DNA from: Escherichia coli
Lineage (GTDB): Bacteria; Pseudomonadota; Gammaproteobacteria; Enterobacterales; Enterobacteriaceae
Strand: one strand, 5' to 3'
DNA: 64,000 bases
Assembly (NCBI RefSeq): GCF_036507355.1
Contig: NZ_AP027877.1
In this document: positions 6,674 through 51,600 of the stretch, one piece after another
Position numbering within the stretch: position 1 is the first letter of the stretch
Layout of the letters: every line of letters begins with the position of its first letter
The notes under the pieces: model-generated
Databases searched by the model: none
Seen by the model: the letters and a program-made list of their open reading frames with translations, nothing else
What the model was told of the DNA's origin: nothing
Position numbers and translations under genes: made by a program

Positions 6674-8125
6674 TCAACTAAACAACATCGCGATTTTGCC
6701 GAGAGCATAACCTATCACCAGCACCGTTAAGCTGATTTTGATAATGCTGGTAATGCTCTGTGGTTTTTCATCCTCATCATTTTTTTCTTCATGGTTTTCA
6801 GGTGTTGGCTCATCGACATCTTCATCCTCCGGCTCGAGTTTCACTTTCGTCAACAGCATCCGGGTGATAATGGCCTCTAATGGATGAGCATCTCCACCTT
6901 CCAGCCTTGTATTAAGACGGGCCAGCATCTCTTGTTTCGGAAACGCTTCAAGTACTACCTGTTCCGCTACCCGATACAAATCCAGTAACGGTGAATCTTG
7001 CTCTGTCTCGCTACCGACCCTCGATTTCCACCACGCCCATGCTTTGCGTTTGAAGAATAACGACTCAATAAACGATTGACCTAACGGCGATAGTTTTCCG
7101 CTATGTAAAATTTCCGCCCATAACAGACGCGTCCGGGCGCTCTCACCAGGAACATATTTCAACGGTTTACCTTGCGCATCTACCATGCTCCGTGCTTCGA
7201 TAACCATCACTAATAACGCGAAATAATCCGGGCAATGTTGTGCGCTCCACTGCAACAACAAATTATCGGCTTGTGTAGATGGGTAACTTCCCCAGTACGC
7301 GCAGAGATCGGCAAGCAGGCTTTCCCCCTCGCCGCAGTACAAACGTTGTGCACACTGGTAATACCGGGCATCTTCGCTTTCTGGTTCTTCCGTTTGCCAC
7401 TGTTGGGCAACAGGAATGAGTTCCGCCATACCTGTTTGCACCGAGCTGTACCAGCGCAACAGTTTGCGATGCAACTTCGCATCATCAGGAATTAACCACG
7501 GACCTGCCAACGCCAAAAACGCAGTGACATAGTCAGGATGGTAACGACAGCAACGTTCCAGCGCGAAGTAATACTCAACAGTCTGGTTCTGCAACGCAAT
7601 GGGATATTCCAGAAGGCTAAGGAAATCGAAACAATCACCAGCCTGAATGGCCTCAAGAAAAGCCTCCCTTTCTTCCTCATCCATTCCTACGCTGTCATTA
7701 AACGAATGCCAGTTCAAACGCTCTGCCAGCAAAGAAGCACAATTTAATGAAAGATATCGCGCTTCTATAGCGATTGCACACAGCGGCCAGCGTAATTGAT
7801 CGACATCCTCCATGTTCCAGGTATTTAATTGCTGAATAAATTTCTGCCAGGCGGAAGGCTGAAAACGATCACTTTCTGAATCCAGTAATGTCCTGAATGC
7901 ACGAAGTATTTCATGTTCAGCGGCGGCATCTTTTTCTTCATCATCTGCTTCCTCGACAGGATTTACCGCCAGTCGCAGCGCCTCTTCATAGGCCTGGCGT
8001 AATGCTTTAAACCCCTGCGGATCGGTTTCGGGATGACATAACGGTAAGCGAGCAAAATAAGCCTGGCGGATAATGTCTATTTGCGTCGTGCTTTCAATTT
8101 CGAGGATTTGCCAACATGTTTTCAT
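6674..8125 (-). CDS. djlC: J-domain co-chaperone of HscC with C-terminal membrane anchor
   Basis: 483 aa; N-terminal J-like region with [10 protein letters not shown]-terminal hydrophobic tail [18 protein letters not shown]; start overlaps ybeU stop by 4 bp. Confidence 0.88.
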
Positions 8126-8829
8126 AGGTCGCTCACATCCTTAAGCGTTACCGGGCATTCAGGCTGGACAGTTAATGGTTGCCAGGGAAGCGTGGCATAG
8201 AAACGATCGCTTCCCGCTGCTAGCTCTTCGAACATATGACTCCTGGCGCTATCGTATTTGTACAGGGTTAGCGCCTCGCGTAGCGAAGTGTTGTCTTCGC
8301 ACTGAGAAGATTGCCAGTAGAGACGCCCTAGTGAATAGGCAGAAAAATAGTGCATCCAGCTGTGATAGTAATGGTGAGCTCGTACATAGACGCGCGATTG
8401 CAGCCATAAACTCTCGTCTTCCGTCAGCCACTTGTTGAGCACACCAACCCGTGATAAAAAACCCATCCGCACATAATCCCAGGCTTTGATTCCCCCTTCC
8501 CCACAACACATAGCGGTTTGGGCAACGAACTGGGTATAAATCAACCCTCTCTCCGAGCCACCAGCAATTAATGCTTTCCACTCTTCAGGGGAAGAGCGAT
8601 GCCATGTCAGATATAAGCCAGCTAAATCATTGGCATGACCATCATCAGTCATCTGATAAATAGTCTGAATTAAATCATCACGATTATTTATTCCCCAGGA
8701 TGATGAGAGATCGAATTCTTTTATCCCGGTATACATTTTTGGCGAGTCATGCGCGGGTTTGCAACCCTGATTAAGTATTTCCATGGGCGCAGAAAGCGCA
8801 AAAAGAAGATATTGTTCTTCCTTATTCAT
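8122..8829 (-). CDS. ybeU: DUF1266-like protein, function unknown
   Basis: 235 aa; paralogue of ybeR with shared motif [20 protein letters not shown]. Confidence 0.85.
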
Positions 8830-9494: not shown

Positions 9495-10922
9495 TCACCC
9501 GAACAGATGGAGTATTTTCCCTATCAAACCAGCAAAGATAAAAATATAGAAAATAATTTTAATGATGCCCAGACAGCCTGGCCCACCATCGTCAACGGGC
9601 ATTGGCTGCGGTTGCGGCTCCGGTTCAACAGTTTGCTTCTCGGTAAAATTCGCCGCCTGAATTAATAATCGACGAATAATTAATGCTTCCAGTGGACAAC
9701 GATTTTCTGCATCAAGACGGCTTACGATCGGCATTAATGATTCTTCTGTTGGTTGGCTGGCCTGCACTAATTGTTTGGCAACTAAATATAATGGCCATAA
9801 GGGATGTTCTGTATCACGCGTGAGTGAGATCCGCGGCTTACGTCCTTTGTGCAAAACCATCTCGACCAGTGAACGCCCCAGAGCAGAGAGTTTTTCATCG
9901 CTGAGTATTTCGTATAAATGAAAACGCGTACGGGCGCTGTCGCCGGGGATATAAAGTAGCGGTTTTCCCTGATCGTTAACCAGTTCACGAGCTTCAATCA
10001 TCATCACCACTAACGGGTAATAATCGACCCGATGCTGACGGCACCATTGCAATATTAAAGCATCCGCCTGGGTGGAGGGATACTCGCGCCAGTAGTCACA
10101 AAGTTCTGCCAGCAAGCTTTCGCCTTCTCCACAATAGACGCGTTGTGCGTATTCATAATAACGCGCATCTTCATTATCAGGTTCAGCTTCCCGCCACGAC
10201 CGGGCGTAATCCAGGAGTTCGGGAATTCCCAGGCGACCTGCGCTATACCAGCGGAGTAAATTTCTGTGCAGTTTTGCATCATCGGGGATAATCACTGCGC
10301 GATGTTGCGCTAAATACAATGTCAGCCATTCTGGATGCGATGACCAAATCCGAGCGAACATTTGGTAAAAATCGATGGTGTCATTTTGCACGGCAACGGG
10401 CAGATGCAGGATGGTCTGGAAGTTAAAAACATTCCCCTTCGCAATGGCATATAAAAAGGATTCCAGTTCTTCTTCGTCTATTTCCCCGACGTTTTCTTCC
10501 TGCAACCACCGCAATCTTTCTGCTAATAACACCACGCACTCGAAGGATAAATGGGCAGTGTTCATGGCTATTGTGCACAGCGACCAGCGTAATTCATCAA
10601 TCTCTTCCATCGAGCAATAATTTAATTGCTGAATGAATCGCTGCCAGGCGGAGGGCAGAAAACGTTCGCTATCAGAGGCAAGTAACGCACGAAAGGCGAG
10701 CAGAATTTCATGTTCTGCTACCTCATATTCTTCTGGTTGCCAAACAGATTTAGCAGGCGACTGCGCAATCCGTAGCGCCTCCTCATACGCCTGACGAAGT
10801 TGTTTAAAACCCTGCGGATCGGTTTCTGGATGAAAGGACGGTAACAGCGCCAGATAAGCGCGGCGGATAATATCGACGTCAGTCGTTTCCTCTATGTTGA
10901 GGATCTTCCAGCAATTTTTCAT
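9495..10922 (-). CDS. djlB: J-domain protein with C-terminal membrane anchor, paralogue of djlC
   Basis: 475 aa; N-terminus [23 protein letters not shown]...[10 protein letters not shown]-terminal hydrophobic tail; start overlaps ybeR stop by 4 bp. Confidence 0.88.
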
Positions 10923-11626
10923 AGGTCGCTCATATCCTTAAGCGTTTCCGGGCATGTGGGGTAGTCAGCCAGTGGTTGCCAGGGTAAGGTCGCGTAATAT
11001 GCATCGTCACTGGCAAATAATTGATAAAACATATCATTGCCGGAATCGTCGTATTCTTTACGCGCTAAGAATTCACGTAATAAAGGCAGATTATCATCTT
11101 CGGGAGACTGCCAATATTGCCGACCAAAGGTATAACCGGCAAAGTATTGCCGCCAGTTACTATAATAACGTAGAGCCCGTAGATGAATACGCGACTGGAT
11201 CCATAGACTTTCTTCTTCACTCAACCAGTTATTAAGTACGCCCATTCGACTTAAAAAACCCATCCGGACATAATCCCATGCTTTAATTCCTCCCTCACCA
11301 CAGCATTCGGCTGTGCTGGCGACAAATTGCGCATAAGCCTGACCTTGCTCATTTAATTCAGCAAGATAGTCACGCCATTCACATGGAGAATAACGAAACC
11401 AGCGGTGATAAAACCCTGCCAACCGAGCGGCATGACCGTTATCGATCATTCGGTGAATTGTGCGCAGCAGGTCATCACGGTCATCAATTCCCCAGGAGGA
11501 AGAAAGGTCAAAAAAGCATGTACCTAAATACATTTTGGGGGATGAATGCGAAGGTAAACAGCATTCATTGCGTATTTCCATCGGAGTGGAAAGTGCAAAC
11601 AATATTTTTTGCGACTCCATGTCCAT
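10919..11626 (-). CDS. ybeR: DUF1266-like protein, function unknown, paralogue of ybeU
   Basis: 235 aa; same [20 protein letters not shown] motif as ybeU. Confidence 0.85.
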
Positions 11627-23147: not shown

Positions 23148-24236
23148 ATGCGTAAGCAGTGGCTCGGGATCTGCATCGCGGCAGGAATGCTCGCGGCATG
23201 TACAAGCGATGATGGTCAGCAACAGACGGTAAGTGTACCGCAGCCTGCGGTATGTAACGGCCCCATAGTTGAAATTAGCGGGGCGGACCCGCGTTTCGAA
23301 CCACTGAACGCGACGGCAAATCAGGATTACCAGCGCGACGGTAAAAGCTACAAAATCGTGCAGGATCCGTCTCGATTTAGCCAGGCGGGACTGGCGGCAA
23401 TCTATGATGCCGAACCCGGCAGTAACCTGACGGCCTCTGGCGAAGCTTTCGATCCGACACAGCTGACGGCGGCCCATCCAACGCTTCCGATCCCCAGCTA
23501 CGCCAGAATCACTAACCTGGCTAACGGGCGCATGATCGTGGTGCGCATTAATGATCGCGGTCCTTACGGCAACGACCGCGTTATTTCGCTTTCTCGCGCA
23601 GCAGCTGACCGTCTTAACACGTCAAACAACACCAAAGTTCGTATCGATCCGATTATTGTCGCCCAGGATGGTTCGCTTTCTGGTCCTGGTATGGCTTGTA
23701 CCACAGTCGCCAAACAGACTTACGCCCTGCCTGCACCTCCCGATTTAAGCGGCGGCGCAGGAACAAGTTCAGTGTCAGGCCCGCAGGGTGACATTCTTCC
23801 GGTCAGTAATTCGACGCTAAAAAGCGAAGATCCGACCGGCGCGCCGGTAACCAGCAGCGGTTTCCTCGGCGCACCAACGACCTTAGCGCCAGGTGTACTG
23901 GAAGGCAGCGAACCGACGCCTGCTCCACAGCCCGTTGTTACAGCTCCGTCGACAACGCCTGCAACCTCGCCTGCAATGGTGACACCGCAAGCAGCCTCGC
24001 AAAGCGCCAGCGGCAACTTTATGGTGCAGGTCGGGGCCGTTAGCGATCAGGCTCGTGCGCAACAGTACCAACAGCAACTGGGACAGAAGTTCGGCGTCCC
24101 CGGTCGCGTAACTCAAAATGGCGCAGTCTGGCGGATCCAGCTTGGCCCATTCGCCAGCAAAGCCGAAGCCAGTACCTTGCAGCAACGTTTGCAAACCGAA
24201 GCCCAATTACAGTCATTTATTACCACCGCGCAGTAG
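23148..24236 (+). CDS. rlpA: septal ring lytic transglycosylase RlpA (lipoprotein with SPOR domain)
   Basis: 362 aa; lipobox LAAC; Pro/Ala/Thr-rich linker; C-terminal SPOR-like region. Confidence 0.92.
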   Translation: MRKQWLGICIAAGMLAACTSDDGQQQTVSVPQPAVCNGPIVEISGADPRFEPLNATANQDYQRDGKSYKIVQDPSRFSQAGLAAIYDAEPGSNLTASGEAFDPTQLTAAHPTLPIPSYARITNLANGRMIVVRINDRGPYGNDRVISLSRAAADRLNTSNNTKVRIDPIIVAQDGSLSGPGMACTTVAKQTYALPAPPDLSGGAGTSSVSGPQGDILPVSNSTLKSEDPTGAPVTSSGFLGAPTTLAPGVLEGSEPTPAPQPVVTAPSTTPATSPAMVTPQAASQSASGNFMVQVGAVSDQARAQQYQQQLGQKFGVPGRVTQNGAVWRIQLGPFASKAEASTLQQRLQTEAQLQSFITTAQ

Positions 24237-24375
24237 CGTAAAGCAGGCATCTGATGTGTCAATTTCTGTAAATGACGTTAACAAAGTCACGCGGAAAGTC
24301 AGATGCCTGCCGGTAGTGCATTTGCTATAGTAGGGCACTTTTTTTAATTCCATCACGGATGTCGTAGTTCAGACC

Positions 24376-25587
24376 ATGAATACCATTTTTTCCGCTCGTA
24401 TCATGAAGCGCCTGGCGCTCACCACGGCTCTTTGCACAGCCTTTATCTCTGCTGCACATGCCGATGACCTGAATATCAAAACTATGATCCCGGGTGTACC
24501 GCAGATCGACGCGGAGTCCTACATCCTGATTGACTATAACTCCGGCAAAGTGCTCGCCGAACAGAACGCAGATGTCCGCCGCGATCCTGCCAGCCTGACC
24601 AAAATGATGACCAGTTACGTTATCGGCCAGGCAATGAAAGCCGGTAAATTTAAAGAAACTGATTTAGTCACTATCGGCAACGACGCATGGGCCACCGGTA
24701 ACCCGGTGTTTAAAGGTTCTTCGCTGATGTTCCTCAAACCGGGCATGCAGGTTCCGGTTTCTCAGCTGATCCGCGGTATTAACCTGCAATCGGGTAACGA
24801 TGCTTGTGTCGCCATGGCCGATTTTGCCGCTGGTAGCCAGGACGCTTTTGTTGGCTTGATGAACAGCTACGTTAACGCCCTGGGCCTGAAAAATACCCAC
24901 TTCCAGACGGTACATGGTCTGGATGCTGATGGTCAGTACAGCTCCGCGCGCGATATGGCGCTGATCGGCCAGGCATTGATCCGTGACGTACCGAATGAAT
25001 ACTCGATCTATAAAGAAAAAGAATTTACGTTTAACGGTATTCGCCAGCTGAACCGTAACGGCCTGTTATGGGATAACAGCCTGAATGTCGACGGCATCAA
25101 AACCGGACACACTGACAAAGCAGGTTACAACCTTGTTGCTTCTGCGACTGAAGGCCAGATGCGCTTGATCTCTGCGGTGATGGGCGGACGTACTTTTAAA
25201 GGCCGTGAAGCCGAAAGTAAAAAACTGCTAACCTGGGGCTTCCGTTTCTTCGAAACCGTTAACCCACTGAAAGTAGGTAAAGAGTTCGCCTCTGAACCGG
25301 TTTGGTTTGGTGATTCTGATCGCGCTTCGTTAGGGGTTGATAAAGACGTGTACCTGACCATTCCGCGTGGTCGCATGAAAGATCTGAAAGCCAGCTATGT
25401 GCTGAACAGCAGTGAATTGCATGCGCCGCTGCAAAAGAATCAGGTCGTAGGAACTATCAACTTCCAGCTTGATGGCAAAACAATCGAACAACGCCCGCTG
25501 GTTGTGTTGCAAGAAATCCCGGAAGGTAACTTCTTCGGCAAAATCATTGATTACATTAAATTAATGTTCCATCACTGGTTTGGTTAA
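24376..25587 (+). CDS. dacA: D-alanyl-D-alanine carboxypeptidase PBP5
   Basis: 403 aa; signal peptide; SLTK and KTG motifs. Confidence 0.95.
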
Positions 25588-25640
25588 AAATCGAACACTT
25601 GAAAGTGTAATTTCCGTCCCCATATACTAAGCATCAGTAA

Positions 25641-25675
25641 AAAACTCCCGCCTTCTGGCGGGAGTTGCTATTTAA
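25641..25675 (+). terminator. hairpin downstream of dacA
   Basis: aaaaactcccgccttctggcgggagttgctattt. Confidence 0.45.
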
Positions 25676-25696
25676 TTACGTTACGCCGGAGCTGAC

Positions 25697-25960
25697 ATGA
25701 AAACCAAACTTAACGAACTGCTTGAATTCCCTACTCCTTTTACTTACAAAGTTATGGGGCAGGCGTTACCTGAGCTGGTTGATCAGGTGGTTGAAGTGGT
25801 ACAGCGCCATGCGCCAGGTGACTACACCCCAACGGTAAAACCAAGCAGCAAAGGCAACTACCACTCGGTATCTATCACTATCAACGCCACTCATATCGAG
25901 CAGGTTGAAACACTGTATGAAGAACTGGGCAAAATCGATATTGTCCGCATGGTTCTGTAA
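25697..25960 (+). CDS. ybeD: UPF0250/DUF493 protein
   Basis: 87 aa ORF in conserved position upstream of lipB. Confidence 0.85.
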
Positions 25961-26060
25961 CTCGCTTCTCCGTTACCCGGCCCCTGGTCGGGTAACTCCC
26001 CTCTCCTCGCTGTGATATACTTTTCCCCCACTTTTACTCATTCTCCACGGAGATGCCGTT

Positions 26061-26702
26061 TTGTATCAGGATAAAATTCTTGTCCGCCAGCTCGGTCTTC
26101 AGCCTTACGAGCCAATCTCCCAAGCTATGCATGAATTCACCGATACCCGCGATGATAGTACCCTTGATGAAATCTGGCTGGTCGAGCACTATCCGGTATT
26201 CACCCAAGGGCAAGCAGGAAAAGCGGAGCACATTTTAATGCCGGGTGATATTCCGGTGATTCAGAGCGATCGCGGTGGGCAGGTGACTTATCACGGGCCG
26301 GGGCAACAGGTGATGTATGTATTGCTTAACCTGAAACGCCGTAAACTCGGTGTGCGTGAACTGGTGACCTTGCTTGAGCAAACAGTGGTGAATACCCTGG
26401 CTGAACTGGGTATAGAAGCGCATCCTCGGGCTGACGCGCCAGGTGTCTATGTTGGGGAAAAGAAAATTTGCTCACTGGGTTTACGTATTCGACGCGGTTG
26501 TTCATTCCACGGTCTGGCATTAAACGTCAATATGGATCTTTCACCATTTTTACGTATTAATCCTTGTGGGTATGCCGGAATGGAAATGGCTAAAATATCA
26601 CAATGGAAACCCGAAGCGACGACTAATAATATTGCACCACGTTTACTGGAAAATATTTTAGCGCTACTAAACAATCCTGACTTCGAATATATTACCGCTT
26701 AA
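26061..26702 (+). CDS. lipB: octanoyltransferase (lipoate-protein ligase B)
   Basis: 213 aa ORF with TTG start. Confidence 0.9.
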
Positions 26703-27114
26703 TTTCATACCTCAATGGCCCAATTTACACTGGGTCATTACTCATAACACCTGCTAATGCTTTACATCTCCTTCGCGTTTGTATATTTTCTTTATCACTT
26801 GCAGAAATGCGATGCTACGCCTTGCTCCGTAACTCACCCCATTGATTAACTTATTGAAATAGTTGATTATGATGAGCAAAAGCGTTCCGTTCCAATTAGA
26901 CATAAGATTATTGTAATTTTTTTAAATATTATTTTTCCATGAATAAAATTGGAGTAAGTGCGTGGATAGTAATAATTAAATTGAATCCTGTTTAAGCAGA
27001 AAATCGTCAGAAGGTAAACCACAAATATTTACAACCTTACGAAATATTGATCTTAATCTTCTGACTATTTTTGAAGCTGTATATGTACATAAAGGGATCG
27101 TTAATGCAGCGAAA

Positions 27115-27915
27115 GTGCTTAATCTGACCCCCTCGGCAATCAGTCAGTCTATTCAGAAACTGCGCGTTATATTCCCTGACCCATTGTTTATTCGCAAAGG
27201 CCAAGGTGTCACTCCTACCGCATTTGCGATGCATCTACATGAGTATATCAGTCAGGGCCTTGAGTCCATTCTTGGCGCGCTGGATATCGAAGGAAGCTAT
27301 GATAAGCAACGAACGATAACTATTGCGACCACCCCCTCGGTCGGAGCCCTGGTCCTTCCTGTCATTTATCGGGCGATTAAAACTCACTATCCGCAGCTTT
27401 TACTGCGCAACCCGCCCATCAGCGACGCGGAAAACCAACTCAGTCAGTTTCAAACCGATCTCATCATCGATAACATGTTTTGCACCAATCGTACGGTGCA
27501 ACATCATGTTCTGTTCACCGACAATATGGTGTTAATTTGCCGCGAGGGAAATCCACTACTCTCTTTAGAAGATGACAGAGAGACTATCGACAACGCTGCA
27601 CATGTACTCCTGTTACCGGAAGGACAAAATTTCAGCGTTCTGCGGCAGAGAATTCAAGAGATGTTTCCGGACCGGCAGATCAGCTTCACCAGCTACAACA
27701 TTTTGACAATCGCTGCACTGGTTGCCAACAGTGACATGTTAGCGATTATTCCCAGCCGTTTTTATAACCTGTTTAGCCGTTGCTGGCCGCTGGAAAAACT
27801 GCCTTTTCCGTCCTTAAATGAGGAGCAAATAGATTTCTCTATCCACTACAACAAATTCAGCCTGCGTGATCCCATCCTGCACGGAGTAATAGATGTTATC
27901 CGTAATGCATTTTGA
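27115..27915 (+). CDS. ybeF: LysR-family transcriptional regulator; N-terminus uncertain (HTH-coding sequence continues in frame upstream to an in-frame TAA at 26977..26979)
   Basis: ORF 27115..27915 (266 aa, GTG start); upstream in-frame sequence encodes the LysR HTH region ...TTLRNIDLNLLTIFEAVYVHKGIVNAAK. Confidence 0.6.
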   Translation: MLNLTPSAISQSIQKLRVIFPDPLFIRKGQGVTPTAFAMHLHEYISQGLESILGALDIEGSYDKQRTITIATTPSVGALVLPVIYRAIKTHYPQLLLRNPPISDAENQLSQFQTDLIIDNMFCTNRTVQHHVLFTDNMVLICREGNPLLSLEDDRETIDNAAHVLLLPEGQNFSVLRQRIQEMFPDRQISFTSYNILTIAALVANSDMLAIIPSRFYNLFSRCWPLEKLPFPSLNEEQIDFSIHYNKFSLRDPILHGVIDVIRNAF

Positions 27916-28123
27916 AAAAGTATTGTTACAGCCAGATCACAGCGCAGAACGATAAAATGGCACAATCCAACAACAATTTTACATTTTCGCGACCGCTTTG
28001 GCTGCTTTCAGGTCCGTTTCAATGATATACTGCCAGTCGTTAATTCAAAAATAGTTGATAATTACAACAATCTATTGAATTGAAACGCTTTCCTTCGTAA
28101 TTCGCAACTGGAACACGCACGCT

Positions 28124-29089
28124 ATGAGTAAACCCATTGTGATGGAACGCGGTGTTAAATACCGCGATGCCGATAAGATGGCCCTTATCCCGGTTAAAAA
28201 CGTGGCAACAGAGCGCGAAGCCCTGCTGCGCAAGCCGGAATGGATGAAAATCAAGCTTCCAGCGGACTCTACACGTATCCAGGGCATCAAAGCCGCAATG
28301 CGCAAAAATGGCCTGCATTCTGTCTGCGAGGAAGCCTCCTGCCCTAACCTGGCGGAATGCTTCAACCACGGCACAGCAACGTTTATGATCCTCGGCGCTA
28401 TTTGTACCCGCCGTTGTCCGTTCTGTGACGTTGCCCACGGTCGCCCGGTAGCTCCTGATGCCAATGAACCAGTGAAACTGGCGCAGACCATTGCCGATAT
28501 GGCGCTGCGTTATGTGGTTATCACCTCCGTTGACCGTGATGACCTGCGCGATGGCGGTGCCCAGCACTTTGCGGATTGCATTACTGCCATTCGGGAAAAA
28601 AGCCCGCAAATCAAAATTGAAACTCTGGTGCCGGATTTCCGCGGTCGTATGGATCGTGCTCTGGATATTCTGACTGCAACGCCACCAGATGTGTTCAACC
28701 ATAACCTGGAAAACGTACCGCGTATTTACCGTCAGGTACGGCCTGGTGCAGATTACAACTGGTCGCTGAAGCTGCTGGAACGCTTTAAAGAAGCACATCC
28801 GGAAATCCCGACCAAGTCTGGTCTGATGGTGGGACTGGGTGAAACCAATGAAGAAATTATTGAGGTAATGCGCGACCTGCGCCGTCATGGTGTGACGATG
28901 TTAACGCTGGGGCAATATTTGCAGCCAAGCCGCCATCACCTGCCGGTTCAACGTTACGTTAGCCCGGATGAGTTCGACGAAATGAAAGCCGAAGCGCTGG
29001 CGATGGGCTTTACCCATGCTGCATGCGGTCCGTTTGTCCGCTCTTCTTACCACGCCGATTTGCAGGCGAAAGGGATGGAAGTTAAGTAA
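28124..29089 (+). CDS. lipA: lipoyl synthase
   Basis: 321 aa; radical-SAM CxxxCxxC (CTRRCPFC) plus N-terminal Cys cluster. Confidence 0.95.
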
Positions 29090-29120
29090 TCCTGTAATAA
29101 TTACTTACATCTGTCTGATA

Positions 29121-29149
29121 AAAAACCCGCTTTTTGAAGCGGGTTTTTT
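29121..29149. terminator. bidirectional rho-independent terminator between convergent lipA and tatE
   Basis: aaaaacccgctttttgaagcgggtttttt: stem-loop with A-run and T-run on either side. Confidence 0.75.
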
Positions 29150-29189
29150 GTATCGAACAAGATATTGAGGGAGCGTCCTGCTCGCCACG

Positions 29190-29393
29190 TCACTCTTTAT
29201 GAGAGAGCTTTTCAGCCTGAAGATCAACGTCTGCGCCTTTTTTCGCCGCAGCATCGTCATCATTCATCGCCTTCTTGAACCCTTTAATGGCCGCTCCAAG
29301 GTCTCCGCCCAGCGTACGTAACTTCTTAGTCCCAAACAGCAGAACGACCAGCGCCGCAACTACCAGCAGTTTGGTAATACTAATCTCACCCAT
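29190..29393 (-). CDS. tatE: twin-arginine translocase subunit TatE
   Basis: 67 aa; N-terminal TM helix [25 protein letters not shown] typical of TatA/E. Confidence 0.9.
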
Positions 29394-29521
29394 AGATACC
29401 TTCTTGACATATAACCGGCAACAGAACGCGCCTTAAAAACCAGAGAATATTAACGGTCATTCGACGCGCGCACACAATAGCAATCTGTAACAAGGTGAAT
29501 CAAGCGCCGAGTAAAAAAACA

Positions 29522-30316
29522 TCATAATAATTGCGGCGGCGCAAAGCGACGGTTGTTTAAGACGGGCAGTTGCGCGCGCACCTGACGCACACGTTCGGGC
29601 GTCACTTCCGCCATAATGAGTGCAGGCATTTCTGACGCTGCCGCAATGGTGACGCCAAAGGGATCTATAATCCGGCTTTGCCCGATATTTTTGTTCCCGC
29701 ACTCCCCCGCCGCCACCATATAACAGGTGGTATCCAGCGCACGAGCGGCAAGCAACGTTGACCAGTGATGCTCTTTGAGCGGCCCGCGAACCCAGGCGGC
29801 AGGAAGTGCCAGGATTTCAGCTCCCTGTAATGCCTGTGCCAGCGCCAGCTCTGGAAAGCGTAAGTCATAACAGGTCATCAGACCGACCTTCATCCCTTCC
29901 ACCTCCAGTAACGGAGCGATTTCATTACCAGCATCAACACGGCGTGATTCCTGAATGGCAAATGCATCATAGAGATGCAGTTTGGCATAACGGGCGACAA
30001 TGTTTCCTGCCTGTAGCGCCACCAGCATATTCCATGCGCGCCCCGGCGTTGAAGGAACATGAATCGTCAGAATTGTCGTCATCATGTTACGTTTACTTTC
30101 TCGCCGTAAACGTCCGAGGAATTCGCCTTCCAGCAGCTGTGCTGATTTAACCGATAGATCTGCATCATGATCATCGCGTGCCAGCAATGCTTCCGGCAGG
30201 ACAAACAGCGATACGTCGTTTTCCGCCGCCTGCGCCATCAACGAGGCACAAATCTCAGCGTTCTTTTCCCACACAGATGTAACAGCAAACTGTCCTGCAG
30301 CAACCAGCATTGCCAC
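29522..30316 (-). CDS. ybeM: C-N hydrolase (nitrilase superfamily) protein, apparently intact
   Basis: 264 aa uninterrupted ORF; catalytic Cys context [12 protein letters not shown]. Confidence 0.75.
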
Positions 30317-30402
30317 CTCCTGTCAGAGTCGTAAAATTCGCCAACGACGATTATTCGGCGTTACACTTATCACTCATACAAATCAAATAGCAGGATTTTG
30401 CA

Positions 30403-30786
30403 GTGTTACAACTTCTTTTAGCAGTTTTTATTGGCGGTGGTACGGGAAGCGTGGCGAGATGGCTGTTAAGTATGCGATTTAACCCGCTGCATCAGGCGAT
30501 TCCGTTGGGGACGCTGGCTGCAAATCTGATTGGGGCATTCATCATAGGAATGGGATTCGCCTGGTTCAGCAGGATGACAAACATTGATCCCGTGTGGAAA
30601 GTATTAATCACCACCGGATTTTGTGGCGGTCTTACAACCTTCTCAACATTTTCGGCAGAAGTGGTGTTTTTGTTACAAGAGGGCCGCTTTGGCTGGGCGT
30701 TACTGAACGTTTTCGTCAACCTTCTGGGGTCTTTTGCCATGACCGCACTGGCTTTCTGGCTGTTTTCGGCCTCAACCGCACACTAA
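30403..30786 (+). CDS. crcB: fluoride ion channel CrcB/FluC
   Basis: 127 aa, four hydrophobic helices. Confidence 0.9.
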
Positions 30787-30792
30787 AGACCA

Positions 30793-30821
30793 AAAAAAAC
30801 CCGCTGATTAAGCGGGTTTTG
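30793..30821. terminator. bidirectional rho-independent terminator between convergent crcB and cspE
   Basis: aaaaaaaacccgctgattaagcgggttttg. Confidence 0.75.
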
Positions 30822-30839
30822 AATTCTTGCTGACGTATC

Positions 30840-31049
30840 TTACAGAGCGATTACGTTTGCAGCAGAAGGGCCTTTGGCACCGTTAGTGATTTCGAACTCT
30901 ACGCGCTGACCTTCAGCAAGAGTTTTAAAACCATTAGTCTGGATTGCAGAGAAGTGTACGAACACGTCTTTGCTGCCGTCTTCCGGAGTAATGAAACCGA
31001 ATCCTTTGGACTCATTAAACCACTTAACGTTACCTTTAATCTTAGACAT
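30840..31049 (-). CDS. cspE: cold-shock-domain protein CspE
   Basis: ORF 30840..31133 trimmed to [20 protein letters not shown] (RNP1 motif); 69 aa. Confidence 0.92.
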
Positions 31050-31223: not shown

Positions 31224-31714
31224 TCAAAACTGAAAGCGCATCCAGGCAAAGTACACATTACCATTGTTGTAGGTACCCGGAATATAGGTCATCTGAAAAG
31301 TCACTGGACCATAACCCACGGAGGCCAATGGCAGTAGAACCGGGAGAGGGATGTTATTCCAGTTATCACGTGCCGTTACGCCAGCGGTGAATCCCAGACC
31401 TAAATGAAAAGTTTCATCCGCCAGCGGTCGCCAGGTACTTTCCCATCCGTATCCGGCAATCGGTTCCCATTTGTTCCACGAGTCCTTAAATGCCATGGCA
31501 TACAGGCCATGCCAGTTTCCTTTTTCATCCCAACGCGACAGGCCAAAACCGCCACCCCACGGTCGCTCGTTATAGCGATCGGTTTTTTCTTTGTCGTAAG
31601 CGAAACGTGCATGCCAGGTGATGGCAGGAATATATAAATCATAATGTTCAGGCTGTTGCCAGGTTTGTGCAATATTTTCTCTAAACGTTGTCATCCACTC
31701 ATCTGCGTTAGCAA
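31224..31714 (-). pseudogene. pagP: lipid A palmitoyltransferase PagP, 5'-truncated: signal-peptide codons and promoter replaced by IS1
   Basis: Reading frame continues upstream of the ORF-track Met as ...[15 protein letters not shown] and runs straight into the IS1 terminus at 31715; first ~24 codons absent. Confidence 0.85.
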
Positions 31715-31729
31715 GGTAATGACTCCAAC

Positions 31730-32233
31730 TTATTGATAGTGTTTTATGTTCAGATAATGCCCGATGACTTTGTCATGCAGCTCCACCGATTTTGAGAACG
31801 ACAGCGACTTCCGTCCCAGTCGTGCCAGGTGCTGCCTCAGATTCAGGTTATGCCGCTCAATTCGCTGCGTATATCGCTTGCTGATTACGTGCAGCTTTCC
31901 CTTCAGGCGGGATTCATACAGCGGCCAGCCATCCGTCATCCATATCACCACGTCAAAGGGTGACAGCAGGCTCATAAGACGCCCCAGCGTCGCCATCGTG
32001 CGTTCACCGAATACGTGCGCAACAACCGTCTTCCGGAGCCTGTCATACGCGTAAAACAGCCAGCGCTGGCGCGATTTAGCCCCGACATAGCCCCACTGTT
32101 CGTCCATTTCCGCGCAGACGATGACGTCACTGCCCGGCTGTATGCGCGAGGTTACCGACTGCGGCCTGAGTTTTTTAAGTGACGTAAAATCGTGTTGAGG
32201 CCAACGCCCATAATGCGGGCTGTTGCCCGGCAT
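31730..32233 (-). CDS. insB: IS1 transposase InsB frame (InsAB' made by -1 frameshift)
   Basis: 167 aa ORF recognised as IS1 InsB. Confidence 0.9.
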
Positions 32234-32427
32234 CCAACGCCATTCATGGCCATATCAATGATTTTCTGGTGCGTACCGGGTTGAGAAGCGGTGTAAGTGA
32301 ACTGCAGTTGCCATGTTTTACGGCAGTGAGAGCAGAGATAGCGCTGATGTCCGGCGGTGCTTTTGCCGTTACGCACCACCCCGTCAGTAGCTGAACAGGA
32401 GGGACAGCTGATAGAAACAGAAGCCAC
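32152..32427 (-). CDS. insA: IS1 InsA transposition inhibitor/repressor
   Basis: 91 aa; [43 protein letters not shown] zinc-finger N-terminus. Confidence 0.92.
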
Positions 32428-32482
32428 TGGAGCACCTCAAAAACACCATCATACACTAAATCAGTAAGTTGGCAGCATCACC

Positions 32483-33848
32483 CCTTATTGGGGTTGTGGT
32501 TATTGTGGGTGTAGCTCGCTACATCATTAAAGGGTATTCCGCCACTGGCGTGTTATTTGTCGGTGGCCTGTTATTGCTGATTATCAGTGCCATTATGGGG
32601 CACAAAGTGTTACCGTCCAGCCAGGCTTCAACAGGCTACAGCGCCACGGATATTGTTGAATACGTTAAAATATTGCTAATGAGCCGCGGCGGCGACCTCG
32701 GCATGATGATTATGATGCTGTGTGGCTTTGCCGCTTACATGACCCATATCGGCGCGAATGATATGGTGGTCAAGCTGGCGTCAAAACCATTGCAGTATAT
32801 TAACTCCCCCTACCTGCTGATGATTGCCGCCTATTTTGTTGCCTGTCTGATGTCACTGGCCGTCTCTTCCGCAACCGGTCTGGGTGTTTTGCTGATGGCA
32901 ACCCTGTTTCCGGTGATGGTAAACGTTGGTATCAGTCGTGGGGCAGCAGCTGCCATTTGTGCCTCCCCGGCGGCGATTATTCTCGCACCGACTTCAGGGG
33001 ATGTGGTGCTGGCGGCGCAAGCTTCCGAAATGTCGCTGATTGACTTCGCCTTCAAAACGACGCTGCCTATCTCAATTGCTGCAATTATCGGCATGGCGAT
33101 CGCCCACTTCTTCTGGCAACGTTATCTGGATAAAAAAGAGCACATATCTCATGAAATGTTAGATGTCAGTGAAATAACCACCACTGCCCCTGCGTTTTAT
33201 GCCATTTTGCCGTTCACGCCGATCATCGGGGTGCTGATTTTTGACGGCAAATGGGGTCCGCAATTACACATCATCACTATTCTGGTGATTTGTATGCTGA
33301 TTGCCTCCATTCTGGAGTTCCTCCGCAGCTTTAATACCCAGAAAGTTTTCTCTGGTCTGGAAGTGGCTTATCGCGGGATGGCAGATGCATTTGCAAACGT
33401 GGTGATGCTGCTGGTTGCCGCTGGGGTATTCGCTCAGGGGCTTAGCACCATCGGCTTTATTCAAAGTCTGATTTCTATCGCTACCTCGTTTGGTTCGGCG
33501 AGTATCATCCTGATGCTGGTATTGGTGATTCTGACAATGCTGGCGGCAGTCACGACCGGTTCAGGCAATGCGCCGTTTTATGCGTTTGTTGAGATGATCC
33601 CGAAACTGGCGCACTCTTCCGGCATTAACCCGGCGTATTTGACTATCCCGATGCTGCAGGCGTCAAACCTGGGTCGTACCCTATCACCCGTTTCTGGCGT
33701 AGTCGTTGCGGTTGCCGGGATGGCGAAAATCTCACCATTTGAAGTCGTAAAACGCACCTCGGTGCCGGTGCTTGTTGGTTTGGTGATTGTTATCGTTGCT
33801 ACAGAGCTGATGGTGCCAGGAACGGCAGCAGCGGTCACAGGCAAGTAA
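32483..33848 (+). CDS. dcuC: anaerobic C4-dicarboxylate transporter DcuC, 5' end and promoter replaced by IS1 (possible fusion start inside IS1 end)
   Basis: ORF track 32469..33848 begins with TTG inside the IS1 terminal repeat; DcuC-like sequence from ...LIGVVVIVGVARYIIKGY onward. Confidence 0.7.
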
Positions 33849-45105: not shown

Positions 45106-46344
45106 TCATATTGTTCCCCCCGGCATCGCATTCACCAGACCTGAAACCGCCTTCTGCGCCGCCTCTGCGCTTTGTGCACCGGGTACCAGAATCACCTTAC
45201 GGCACTCCTCTTCACGTTTTTCGAAAATCTCATATCCCCGGGCGGCCTCTTCAAACGGCATATAGTGGGTAACAATTTCTTCTGGTTTCAGTAATCCTTT
45301 CTCAATTAACGGTAATAATTCTCCCAGCCATGCGTGAACGTGGGTCTGTCCCATTTTAAACGTCAACCCTTTATCAAAGGCGTCGCCAAACAGGAAACCG
45401 TGAATAAATCCAGCGTAGACGCCCGGTACGCTAACAATGCCGCCACGCCTGACCGCCGCAATACACTGACGCAACGCTTTACCGCTGCTGCCCTCCAGTT
45501 TCAGGTTAGTCAGCACCGTTTCCGTGGTGCTGCCTTTCGCTTCAAAACCGACGGCGTCTATTACTGCATCCACGCCCCGGTGACCTGCCGTTTGTTCAAT
45601 AATTGACTGTGCCGGATCGCTATCTTCATCGAAATTAATCGGGATCGCGCCGTAGCGGTCAGCGGCGAAACGCAAGCGGTAGGGATGATGATCAACAACA
45701 AAAATCTGTTCCGCACCGAGCAACCGTGCACAGGCGATTGTCAACAATCCCACAGGACCAGCACCATAGACAGCAACGCTTGAACTTTGTTGGATCTGCG
45801 CATTTTTTGCTGCCTGCCATGCCGTTGGCAGAATATCAGAAAGGAAAAGGGCTTTATCATCTGAAAGCAAAGGCGGTACTTTAAACGGCCCCACATTCCC
45901 TTTAGGGACGCGGACATATTCCGCCTGCCCACCAGGAACGCCACCATACAGGTGACTATAACCAAACAATGCCGCGGGAGCTGGTATCTGTTTTTTATTG
46001 AGCGCAGCGCCTTTACCCGCATTGGTATTTTCGCAGGCGGCATATTACTGCATTCGACAGAAAAAACAGTCGCCACAAGCAATGACAAACGGAATTACCA
46101 CCCGGTCGCCTTTTTGCAAATTTTTTACGTCCTTTCCGGTTTCAACTACTTCCCCCATAAATTCATGACCAAAAATATCGCCATGTTTAACCTGGGGTAT
46201 TTTGCCTCGATAAAGATGGAGGTCAGAGCCACAGATCGCCGTTGCCGTAATACGCAGAATAATATCATCTGCCTGTTCAACGCCCGGATCGGGAACATTT
46301 TCTACCTGAACGTTATATGGGCCGTGATAAGTCAATGCTTTCAT
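45106..46344 (-). pseudogene. ybdR: Zn-dependent alcohol dehydrogenase-like oxidoreductase interrupted by an in-frame TAA at codon 100
   Basis: N-terminal ORF 46045..46344 (99 aa, ends ...[10 protein letters not shown]) and C-terminal ORF 45106..45969 are in the same frame; region between them translates without further stops ([32 protein letters not shown]); total 1239 bp. Confidence 0.8.
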
Positions 46345-50697: not shown

Positions 50698-51600
50698 ATG
50701 ACCAATCTCTACGACTTGAAAAAGTTCGACTTAAATCTTCTTGTCATATTTGAGTGTATTTACCAGCATTTAAGCATTAGCAAAGCTGCTGAATCACTAT
50801 ATATCACCCCATCAGCCGTGAGCCAGTCGTTACAACGCTTACGTGCGCAATTTAATGACCCTTTATTCATTCGCTCAGGAAAAGGTATCGCGCCGACGAC
50901 AACAGGGTTAAATCTGCATCACCATCTTGAGAAAAATCTCAGAGGCCTTGAACAAACAATTAATATAGTCAATAAGTCCGAACTAAAGAAAAACTTTATT
51001 ATTCACGGCCCTCAGCTCATTTCTTGCTCTAATAATAGTATGCTGATCCGCTGCCTACGGCAAGATTCCTCTGTCGAGATTGAGTGCCATGATATCCTCA
51101 TGTCAGCAGAGAATGCTGAAGAACTGTTGGTTCACCGCAAAGCCGATCTGGTGATCACCCAAATGCCAGTGATCAGCCGTTCCGTCATTTGCATGCCATT
51201 GCATACGATTCGCAATACTCTAATTTGTAGTAATAGGCATCCACGAATTACTGACAATAGCACTTATGAACAAATTATGGCAGAAGAGTTCACCCAATTA
51301 ATATCTAAATCAGCAGGGGTTGATGATATTCAAATGGAAATAGACGAGAGATTTATGAATCGCAAAATTTCATTTCGTGGTTCCTCTTTGCTGACAATCA
51401 TTAATAGCATTGCAGTTACAGATTTACTGGGAATAGTCCCCTATGAACTTTATAACTCCCACCGTGACTTTCTTAATTTAAAAGAGATAAAACTAGAACA
51501 TCCGTTACCTTCAATAAAGCTTTACATTTCCTATAATAAATCTTCTTTAAACAATCTGGTGTTCTCCCGATTTATTGACCGTCTAAATGAGTGTTTTTGA
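50698..51600 (+). CDS. ybdO: LysR-family transcriptional regulator
   Basis: 300 aa; N-terminal HTH; AT-rich gene and upstream region. Confidence 0.85.
   Translation: MTNLYDLKKFDLNLLVIFECIYQHLSISKAAESLYITPSAVSQSLQRLRAQFNDPLFIRSGKGIAPTTTGLNLHHHLEKNLRGLEQTINIVNKSELKKNFIIHGPQLISCSNNSMLIRCLRQDSSVEIECHDILMSAENAEELLVHRKADLVITQMPVISRSVICMPLHTIRNTLICSNRHPRITDNSTYEQIMAEEFTQLISKSAGVDDIQMEIDERFMNRKISFRGSSLLTIINSIAVTDLLGIVPYELYNSHRDFLNLKEIKLEHPLPSIKLYISYNKSSLNNLVFSRFIDRLNECF

Follow-up and report, generated by a model that had tools for sequence, protein, structure and literature searches.

An early ochre codon in the LysR-type regulator gene ybeF of Escherichia coli: a probable null or near-null allele

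YbeF (b0629) of Escherichia coli K-12 is a LysR-type regulator whose gene lies between lipB and lipA. Deletion of ybeF from K-12 is viable and leaves 67 genes differentially expressed; expression of lrhA falls, that of the FlhDC regulon and flagellar genes rises, and YbeF has no defined direct target (PMC9068703). Both ybeF and citR (ybdO), which encodes a paralogous LysR regulator, are located near the cit operon (PMC9068703). The nearest solved structure to YbeF is that of DntR. Early nonsense mutants of lacI restart translation at internal GUG, AUG and UUG codons, and AUU is the natural start codon of infC and pcnB, in infC a conserved and functional one. Other pseudogenes of ybeF in E. coli represent losses of the same dispensable regulator through a ~392-bp deletion, frameshifts or an IS1 insertion; the lesion described here differs from them in being a point mutation that creates a stop very close to the 5' end of the gene.

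The DNA that we analysed, a 64-kb stretch of an E. coli genome (the window), includes the region dacA-ybeD-lipB-ybeF-lipA-tatE. The order lipB (26061–26702), ybeF and lipA (28124–29089) is that of K-12, Salmonella and Enterobacter, and the conceptual translation of ybeF is 97.8% identical to YbeF of K-12; unlike in K-12, codon 6 is a stop, which makes the 317-aa protein impossible from the native start. A Shine-Dalgarno sequence, GGAG (26951..26954, plus strand), of which GG.G is kept in Escherichia, Salmonella and Enterobacter, stands 7 nt 5' of a conserved GTG start codon (26962..26964, plus strand), the annotated start of 317-aa YbeF in K-12, O157 TW14588 and A30. Codons 2–5 (GAT AGT AAT AAT) are followed by a premature ochre codon, TAA, at codon 6 (26977..26979, plus strand), so that a remnant ORF of five codons (fMet-Asp-Ser-Asn-Asn) occupies 26962..26979 of the plus strand. 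The remaining frame (26980..27915, plus strand) is open for 311 codons and terminates with TGA at 27913–27915. No ATG, GTG or TTG occurs in frame between 26980 and 27114; the next is GTG 27115, the codon of Val52, which as the first canonical start past the stop opens an ORF of 266 aa (27115..27915, plus strand). All of these positions, from GTG 26962 and the TAA to the start-free gap and GTG 27115, are as given in the original prediction. Near-cognate codons in frame past the stop are ATT 26980, ATA 27025, ATT 27046, CTG 27061, ATT 27067 and ATC 27097. The gap itself is unremarkable, since 6.5% of the 45-codon windows in the genes of the 64-kb window lack a canonical start.

The conceptual 317-aa protein has the architecture of a LysR-type regulator. 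A winged helix-turn-helix (HTH; Pfam HTH_1, E 1.5e-14) covers residues 31–89 (27052..27228, plus strand) and can be aligned with the DNA-binding domain of DntR (PDB 1uth), and a LysR_substrate effector domain (Pfam, E 3.7e-16) covers residues 116–316 (27307..27909, plus strand). With Gln6 restored, the translation matches the NCBIfam model NF008554 with 612.6 bits (cut-off 277), aligned over 1–317 of 317. The second-best NCBIfam match is CitR, and since YbeF reaches 180 bits against a CitR cut-off of 400, it is not CitR. CitR itself (50698–51600) is ~30% identical to YbeF and, unlike YbeF, is intact and full length in the window (98.7% identical to K-12). The sole canonical-start ORF of the disrupted gene, that from GTG 27115, does not contain a complete HTH: HTH_1 positions 1–22 are missing, the profile is still matched at positions 23–59 of 60, including the stretch TPSAISQSIQKLR, and the LysR_substrate domain is intact. 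Thus, just the first third of the HTH domain is lost. It had been proposed that the HTH is encoded upstream of GTG 27115; this holds for positions 1–22 and fails for positions 23–59, and the statement that no DNA-binding helix would be left therefore overstates the loss.

Homologs of YbeF are found across the Enterobacteriaceae, and most of the 120 matches listed are 317 aa long and covered to 100%. In an alignment of 17 proteins from 12 named genera, the column of GTG 26962 is the start of 15 of them, and one (P0030) is annotated six residues longer; residues 2–19 vary, and the sequence is nearly invariant from KPQIF onward. We also aligned the 5' end of the gene at the DNA level in five sequences from three genera. 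Neither GTG 26962 nor the GG.G..AG.GC before it varies among these sequences (E. coli, a divergent Escherichia, Salmonella and Enterobacter), and the predicted duplex of this site with the anti-Shine-Dalgarno sequence (-5.9 kcal/mol; background mean -1.8) is the best among the candidate starts. GTG 27115 is a Val52 codon in E. coli; the divergent Escherichia, Salmonella and Enterobacter have ATA or ATT (Ile) in its place, and codon 7 (ATT 26980 here, Ile7) is likewise not conserved among orthologues. Orthologues that use a downstream or non-canonical start were considered and ruled out by the invariant GTG and Shine-Dalgarno sequence and by the start column shared by 15 of the 17 proteins. The suggestion of a non-canonical codon as the native start is not borne out, orthologues starting at the upstream GTG. 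In the text returned by a full-text literature search, no paper evidently maps the starts of ybeF. GTG 26962 being the native start, the TAA interrupts ybeF. The locus is that of ybeF by sequence and by synteny, and the frame from the conserved GTG is broken at codon 6; it is therefore a disrupted allele or pseudogene of ybeF and not a functional member of NF008554.

Codon 6 is CAA in K-12 MG1655, in O157:H7 TW14588 and in A30, and in the alignment the window differs from them at this codon by a C-to-T change alone. In other genera, the protein alignment has Q, K, S, P or L as residue 6. Metagenome contigs that contain the 5' end of ybeF, 54 of which were obtained with a degenerate control pattern, carry CAA in 49 cases, AAA in 5 and TAA in none. 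The 76-nt haplotype of the window is carried by none of 5,426 complete RefSeq E. coli genomes, and the exact TAA haplotype found no match in the metagenome scan or among the GTDB representative genomes. Over 25 kb, the complete RefSeq genomes closest to the window are 99.0–99.4% identical to it. The comparison of codon 6 with orthologues, which had been named as a check, hence shows that the stop is not common to them (CAA, occasionally AAA). Judged from these alignments, the TAA is a derived allele that arose by a single C-to-T substitution at 26977 (Gln6 to stop; ancestral codon CAA), and orthologues and close relatives have sense codons there. Two further changes, one synonymous and one conservative (Gly226Val, at a variable position), separate the window allele from the nearest intact one, WP_000378056.1, which occurs in A30 and O157, and since there are just these two, the nonsense mutation looks recent. 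The frame 3' of the stop is fully open with no decay visible yet, which fits a recent mutation without proving a loss of function.

Loss of ybeF is frequent in E. coli. In 1,096 of 5,424 complete genomes (~20%), coverage of the ybeF locus is below 80%. The two low-coverage genomes that were examined have an internal deletion of ~392 bp (27486–27877 of the window), with or without a second deletion, and PGAP annotates both loci as frameshifted or incomplete pseudogenes; by extension, the ~392-bp deletion presumably accounts for the ~20% of complete genomes. In one strain, an IS1 is inserted inside ybeF. Among full-length metagenome copies of the gene, 17 of 38 keep an intact 317-aa frame, although some of the singletons may be low-coverage assembly errors. 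First stops recur at codons 110, 114 and 178 in metagenome ybeF, alleles of complete genomes included, and the stop at codon 110 (a frameshift allele) is found on eight contigs.

To search for T at 26977 irrespective of haplotype, we designed a 46-nt test around the neighbouring polymorphisms and scanned the complete genomes with it. One complete genome with TAA at codon 6 was recovered, that of CFSAN018748 (NZ_CP028192.1; swine, Denmark), in which ybeF is located at 1523–2476 of the retrieved locus. CFSAN018748 and the window differ at 40 of 3,046 aligned bases, and the differences nearest to the T flank it at 105 nt on the upstream side and at 9 nt on the downstream side. As the haplotypes around the T differ, the codon-6 TAA probably arose independently on each of the two; a single origin, through a conversion tract of less than 114 nt shared between them, would also be compatible with the alignment. 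Single-base changes can turn ybeF codons into stops by 97 routes, of which 21 are G:C-to-A:T transitions, and because the gene is often lost, a repeat hit at one of them is a mild coincidence.

We identify the window allele, with a probability of about 0.85, as a lineage-specific nonsense allele of ybeF that is null or severely hypomorphic and is tolerated since the regulator is dispensable. Ribosomes that start at GTG 26962 would release a pentapeptide at the TAA, and full-length YbeF should be absent or present in traces. A restart at GTG 27115 would yield a fragment of 266 aa in which the winged HTH lacks its first 22 positions and for which normal DNA binding is not expected. With full-length YbeF presumably not made, or made only in traces, and any restart fragment defective in its HTH, the allele would be a functional null or a severe hypomorph. 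YbeF is dispensable and has been lost repeatedly in E. coli, which is why the loss is tolerated. The neighbouring genes are intact (lipB and lipA are 99.5% and 100% identical to K-12, respectively), and since lipA presumably has its own promoter, a strong polar effect of the stop is not expected. The N-terminal inactivation put forward in the original prediction is supported by the derived C-to-T change five codons past the invariant GTG and GGAG, which is reproduced in an independent assembly (see below). The allele is most likely a strain-specific pseudogene of the ordinary kind, known in kind and already present in public databases.

A first alternative is that the allele is a hypomorph maintained by a non-canonical restart, either by reinitiation at ATT 26980 or by new initiation at ATA 27025, and low levels of YbeF would then be made without residues 1–6 (or 1–21) and with the whole HTH. 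ATT 26980 adjoins the stop, residues 2–19 are poorly conserved and thus probably dispensable, AUU has its precedents in infC and pcnB, and PGAP annotates an ATT start for both TAA haplotypes. ATA 27025 is preceded at 9 nt by a Shine-Dalgarno-like GAAGGT (duplex -4.7 kcal/mol). However, the PGAP call is driven by homology, and the same ATT is chosen on draft contigs that begin at codon 2 of the wild-type gene. ATT 26980 also lacks a suitably spaced Shine-Dalgarno sequence (the GGAG lies 25 nt from it, and no duplex within -20..-4 is better than -3.1 kcal/mol), codon 7 is unconserved, and GAAGGT is limited to Escherichia. Near-cognate codons initiate at roughly 0.1–1% of AUG in E. coli. Like infC and pcnB, this ybeF allele has been given an ATT start by NCBI; in contrast to infC, the ATT is an ordinary, non-conserved Ile7 codon, orthologues start six codons upstream of it, and there is no Shine-Dalgarno sequence at a working distance. 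A non-canonical start in general fares poorly here, as no well-placed Shine-Dalgarno sequence exists past the stop except the weak, Escherichia-only one before ATA 27025. Although trace synthesis of an HTH-complete protein from the ATT next to the stop or from ATA 27025 may occur, we consider a hypomorph of this kind improbable, and a null or near-null allele remains our reading.

Recurrence on a second haplotype raises a related alternative, since the same mutation found twice could hint at something beyond neutral loss. TAA-ATT might constitute a termination-reinitiation site at which ribosomes leaving the five-codon leader restart at AUU, giving a small output of YbeF without its non-conserved first six residues; the recurrence would then reflect selection for turning the regulator down and not off. 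We regard this as quite a long shot.

A further possibility is that the 266-aa protein from GTG 27115 is biologically relevant as an effector-binding and oligomerising protein without DNA binding, in the manner of lac repressor restarts. GTG 27115 is the first canonical in-frame start past an early nonsense codon, the LysR_substrate domain is kept whole, and the product is annotated as a protein (BED23322.1). The parallel with early lacI nonsense mutants extends to the arrangement of an early stop (codon 6) followed by in-frame internal GUG (codon 52) and near-cognate codons, and the ybeF restart product would lose part of the DNA-binding headpiece and keep the effector and oligomerisation domain. 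In contrast to the lacI restarts, the internal GTG of ybeF is a putative restart site with a poor Shine-Dalgarno sequence (duplex -3.1 kcal/mol, against the background mean of -1.8). Moreover, the GTG is merely the Val52 codon and is replaced by Ile codons in other genera, the first 22 HTH_1 positions are gone, and the cell has no intact partner that the fragment could poison. A biological role of the fragment is therefore very unlikely.

The stop could in principle stem from a mistake in sequencing or assembly, with C as the real base at 26977, and it is a single base that sets the window apart from nearly all other E. coli. However, the same TAA is present in the Logan assembly of run ERR3330519, which represents another isolate or another run and agrees with the window in 6800 of the 6801 bases over 24115–30915; since one base (26937) differs, it is not the same record as the window. 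ORF products of the TAA allele are found on three to five public contigs, including a 4.64-Mb chromosome, the exact 266-aa product (BED23322.1) being public on an E. coli contig of 4,643,937 bp, and site 26977 lies outside any homopolymer. The identical T in ERR3330519 rules out an error as the source of the TAA, and independent sequencing, in which a sense codon had been named as a refutation, gives a TAA. On this evidence, the allele is real, and we rate an error as highly improbable. The one differing position, 26937 (C versus T), is the only difference between the two sequences in 6.8 kb; it lies 25 nt 5' of the ybeF GTG and falls inside a weak promoter-like match (26921–26949). A promoter scan upstream of ybeF gave weak matches of 9 of 12 positions at best.

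Readthrough of the TAA, natural or by an ochre suppressor tRNA, with full-length YbeF still being made, is barely credible: a second Gln-to-TAA change in the same 64-kb window (ybdR codon 100) might point to suppression, but that stop is common to 13 ordinary complete genomes and has been annotated as a pseudogene, so that it is an inherited allele and no sign of suppression, the 64-kb window contains no tRNA gene and hence offers no support for a suppressor, and readthrough of UAA is normally about 1e-3 or less.

The TAA allele of the window has been deposited both as a 266-aa protein starting at GTG (BED23322.1) and as a 311-aa protein starting at ATT 26980 (WP_338388407.1, by PGAP), each reported on a contig of 4,643,937 bp, apparently the same chromosome, which the complete-genome collection does not include. 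For CFSAN018748, PGAP likewise annotates a 311-aa CDS from the ATT right past the TAA (WP_107236093.1), with no pseudogene call. The same ATT is picked by PGAP on draft contigs that begin at codon 2 of wild-type ybeF, and the ATT start is therefore a fallback rule and no evidence of translation. Two 311-aa proteins beginning MEPCLS (P0013 and P0015) were considered as extra carriers of the stop and rejected, since their contigs start at codon 2 of wild-type ybeF, with CAA at codon 6. In several draft assemblies, a contig starts precisely with codon 2 of the gene, which suggests a repeat or an IS insertion at the start of ybeF in those strains.

Since the nonsense substitution lies so near the 5' end that 311 codons stay open, gene callers still emit a protein. 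In contrast, ybdR with its internal TAA is marked by PGAP as an internal-stop pseudogene in the related strain 873.10, and by this convention of PGAP's own the TAA allele of ybeF should be placed among the pseudogenes. In counts of regulators and in pan-genomes, both deposited proteins are best handled as coming from a disrupted gene until their expression has been demonstrated. The practical value of the finding lies in annotation; its biological weight is small, as one more route by which ybeF is lost in E. coli.

The Gln-to-TAA codon of ybdR is located at 46045–46047, within ybdR (45109–46344, minus strand). The window also contains an IS1 copy of 769 bp (31715–32483), 99.7% identical to the IS1 of strain Z226-5, which replaces pagP codons 1–17, the pagP-dcuC intergenic region and dcuC codons 1–7. 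The insertion leaves 5'-truncated remnants of pagP (31224–31733, minus strand) and dcuC (32484–33848, plus strand), and the IS1-dcuC junction of the window is absent from 5,426 complete E. coli genomes. In strain 873.10, an IS1 and an IS3 lie between pagP and dcuC, in the same intergenic region, and both genes are intact. The gene ybeM, which encodes deaminated glutathione amidase, is an intact ORF of 264 aa in the window (29522–30316, minus strand); its product has 262 aa in strain 873.10, and the gene is a frameshifted pseudogene in the K-12 MG1655 record. Two direct repeats, D1 (6674–8829) and D2 (9495–11626), both on the minus strand, are 73–76% identical and 2,797 nt apart, and correspond to the paralogous gene pairs djlC-ybeU and djlB-ybeR, whose proteins are 50–60% identical.
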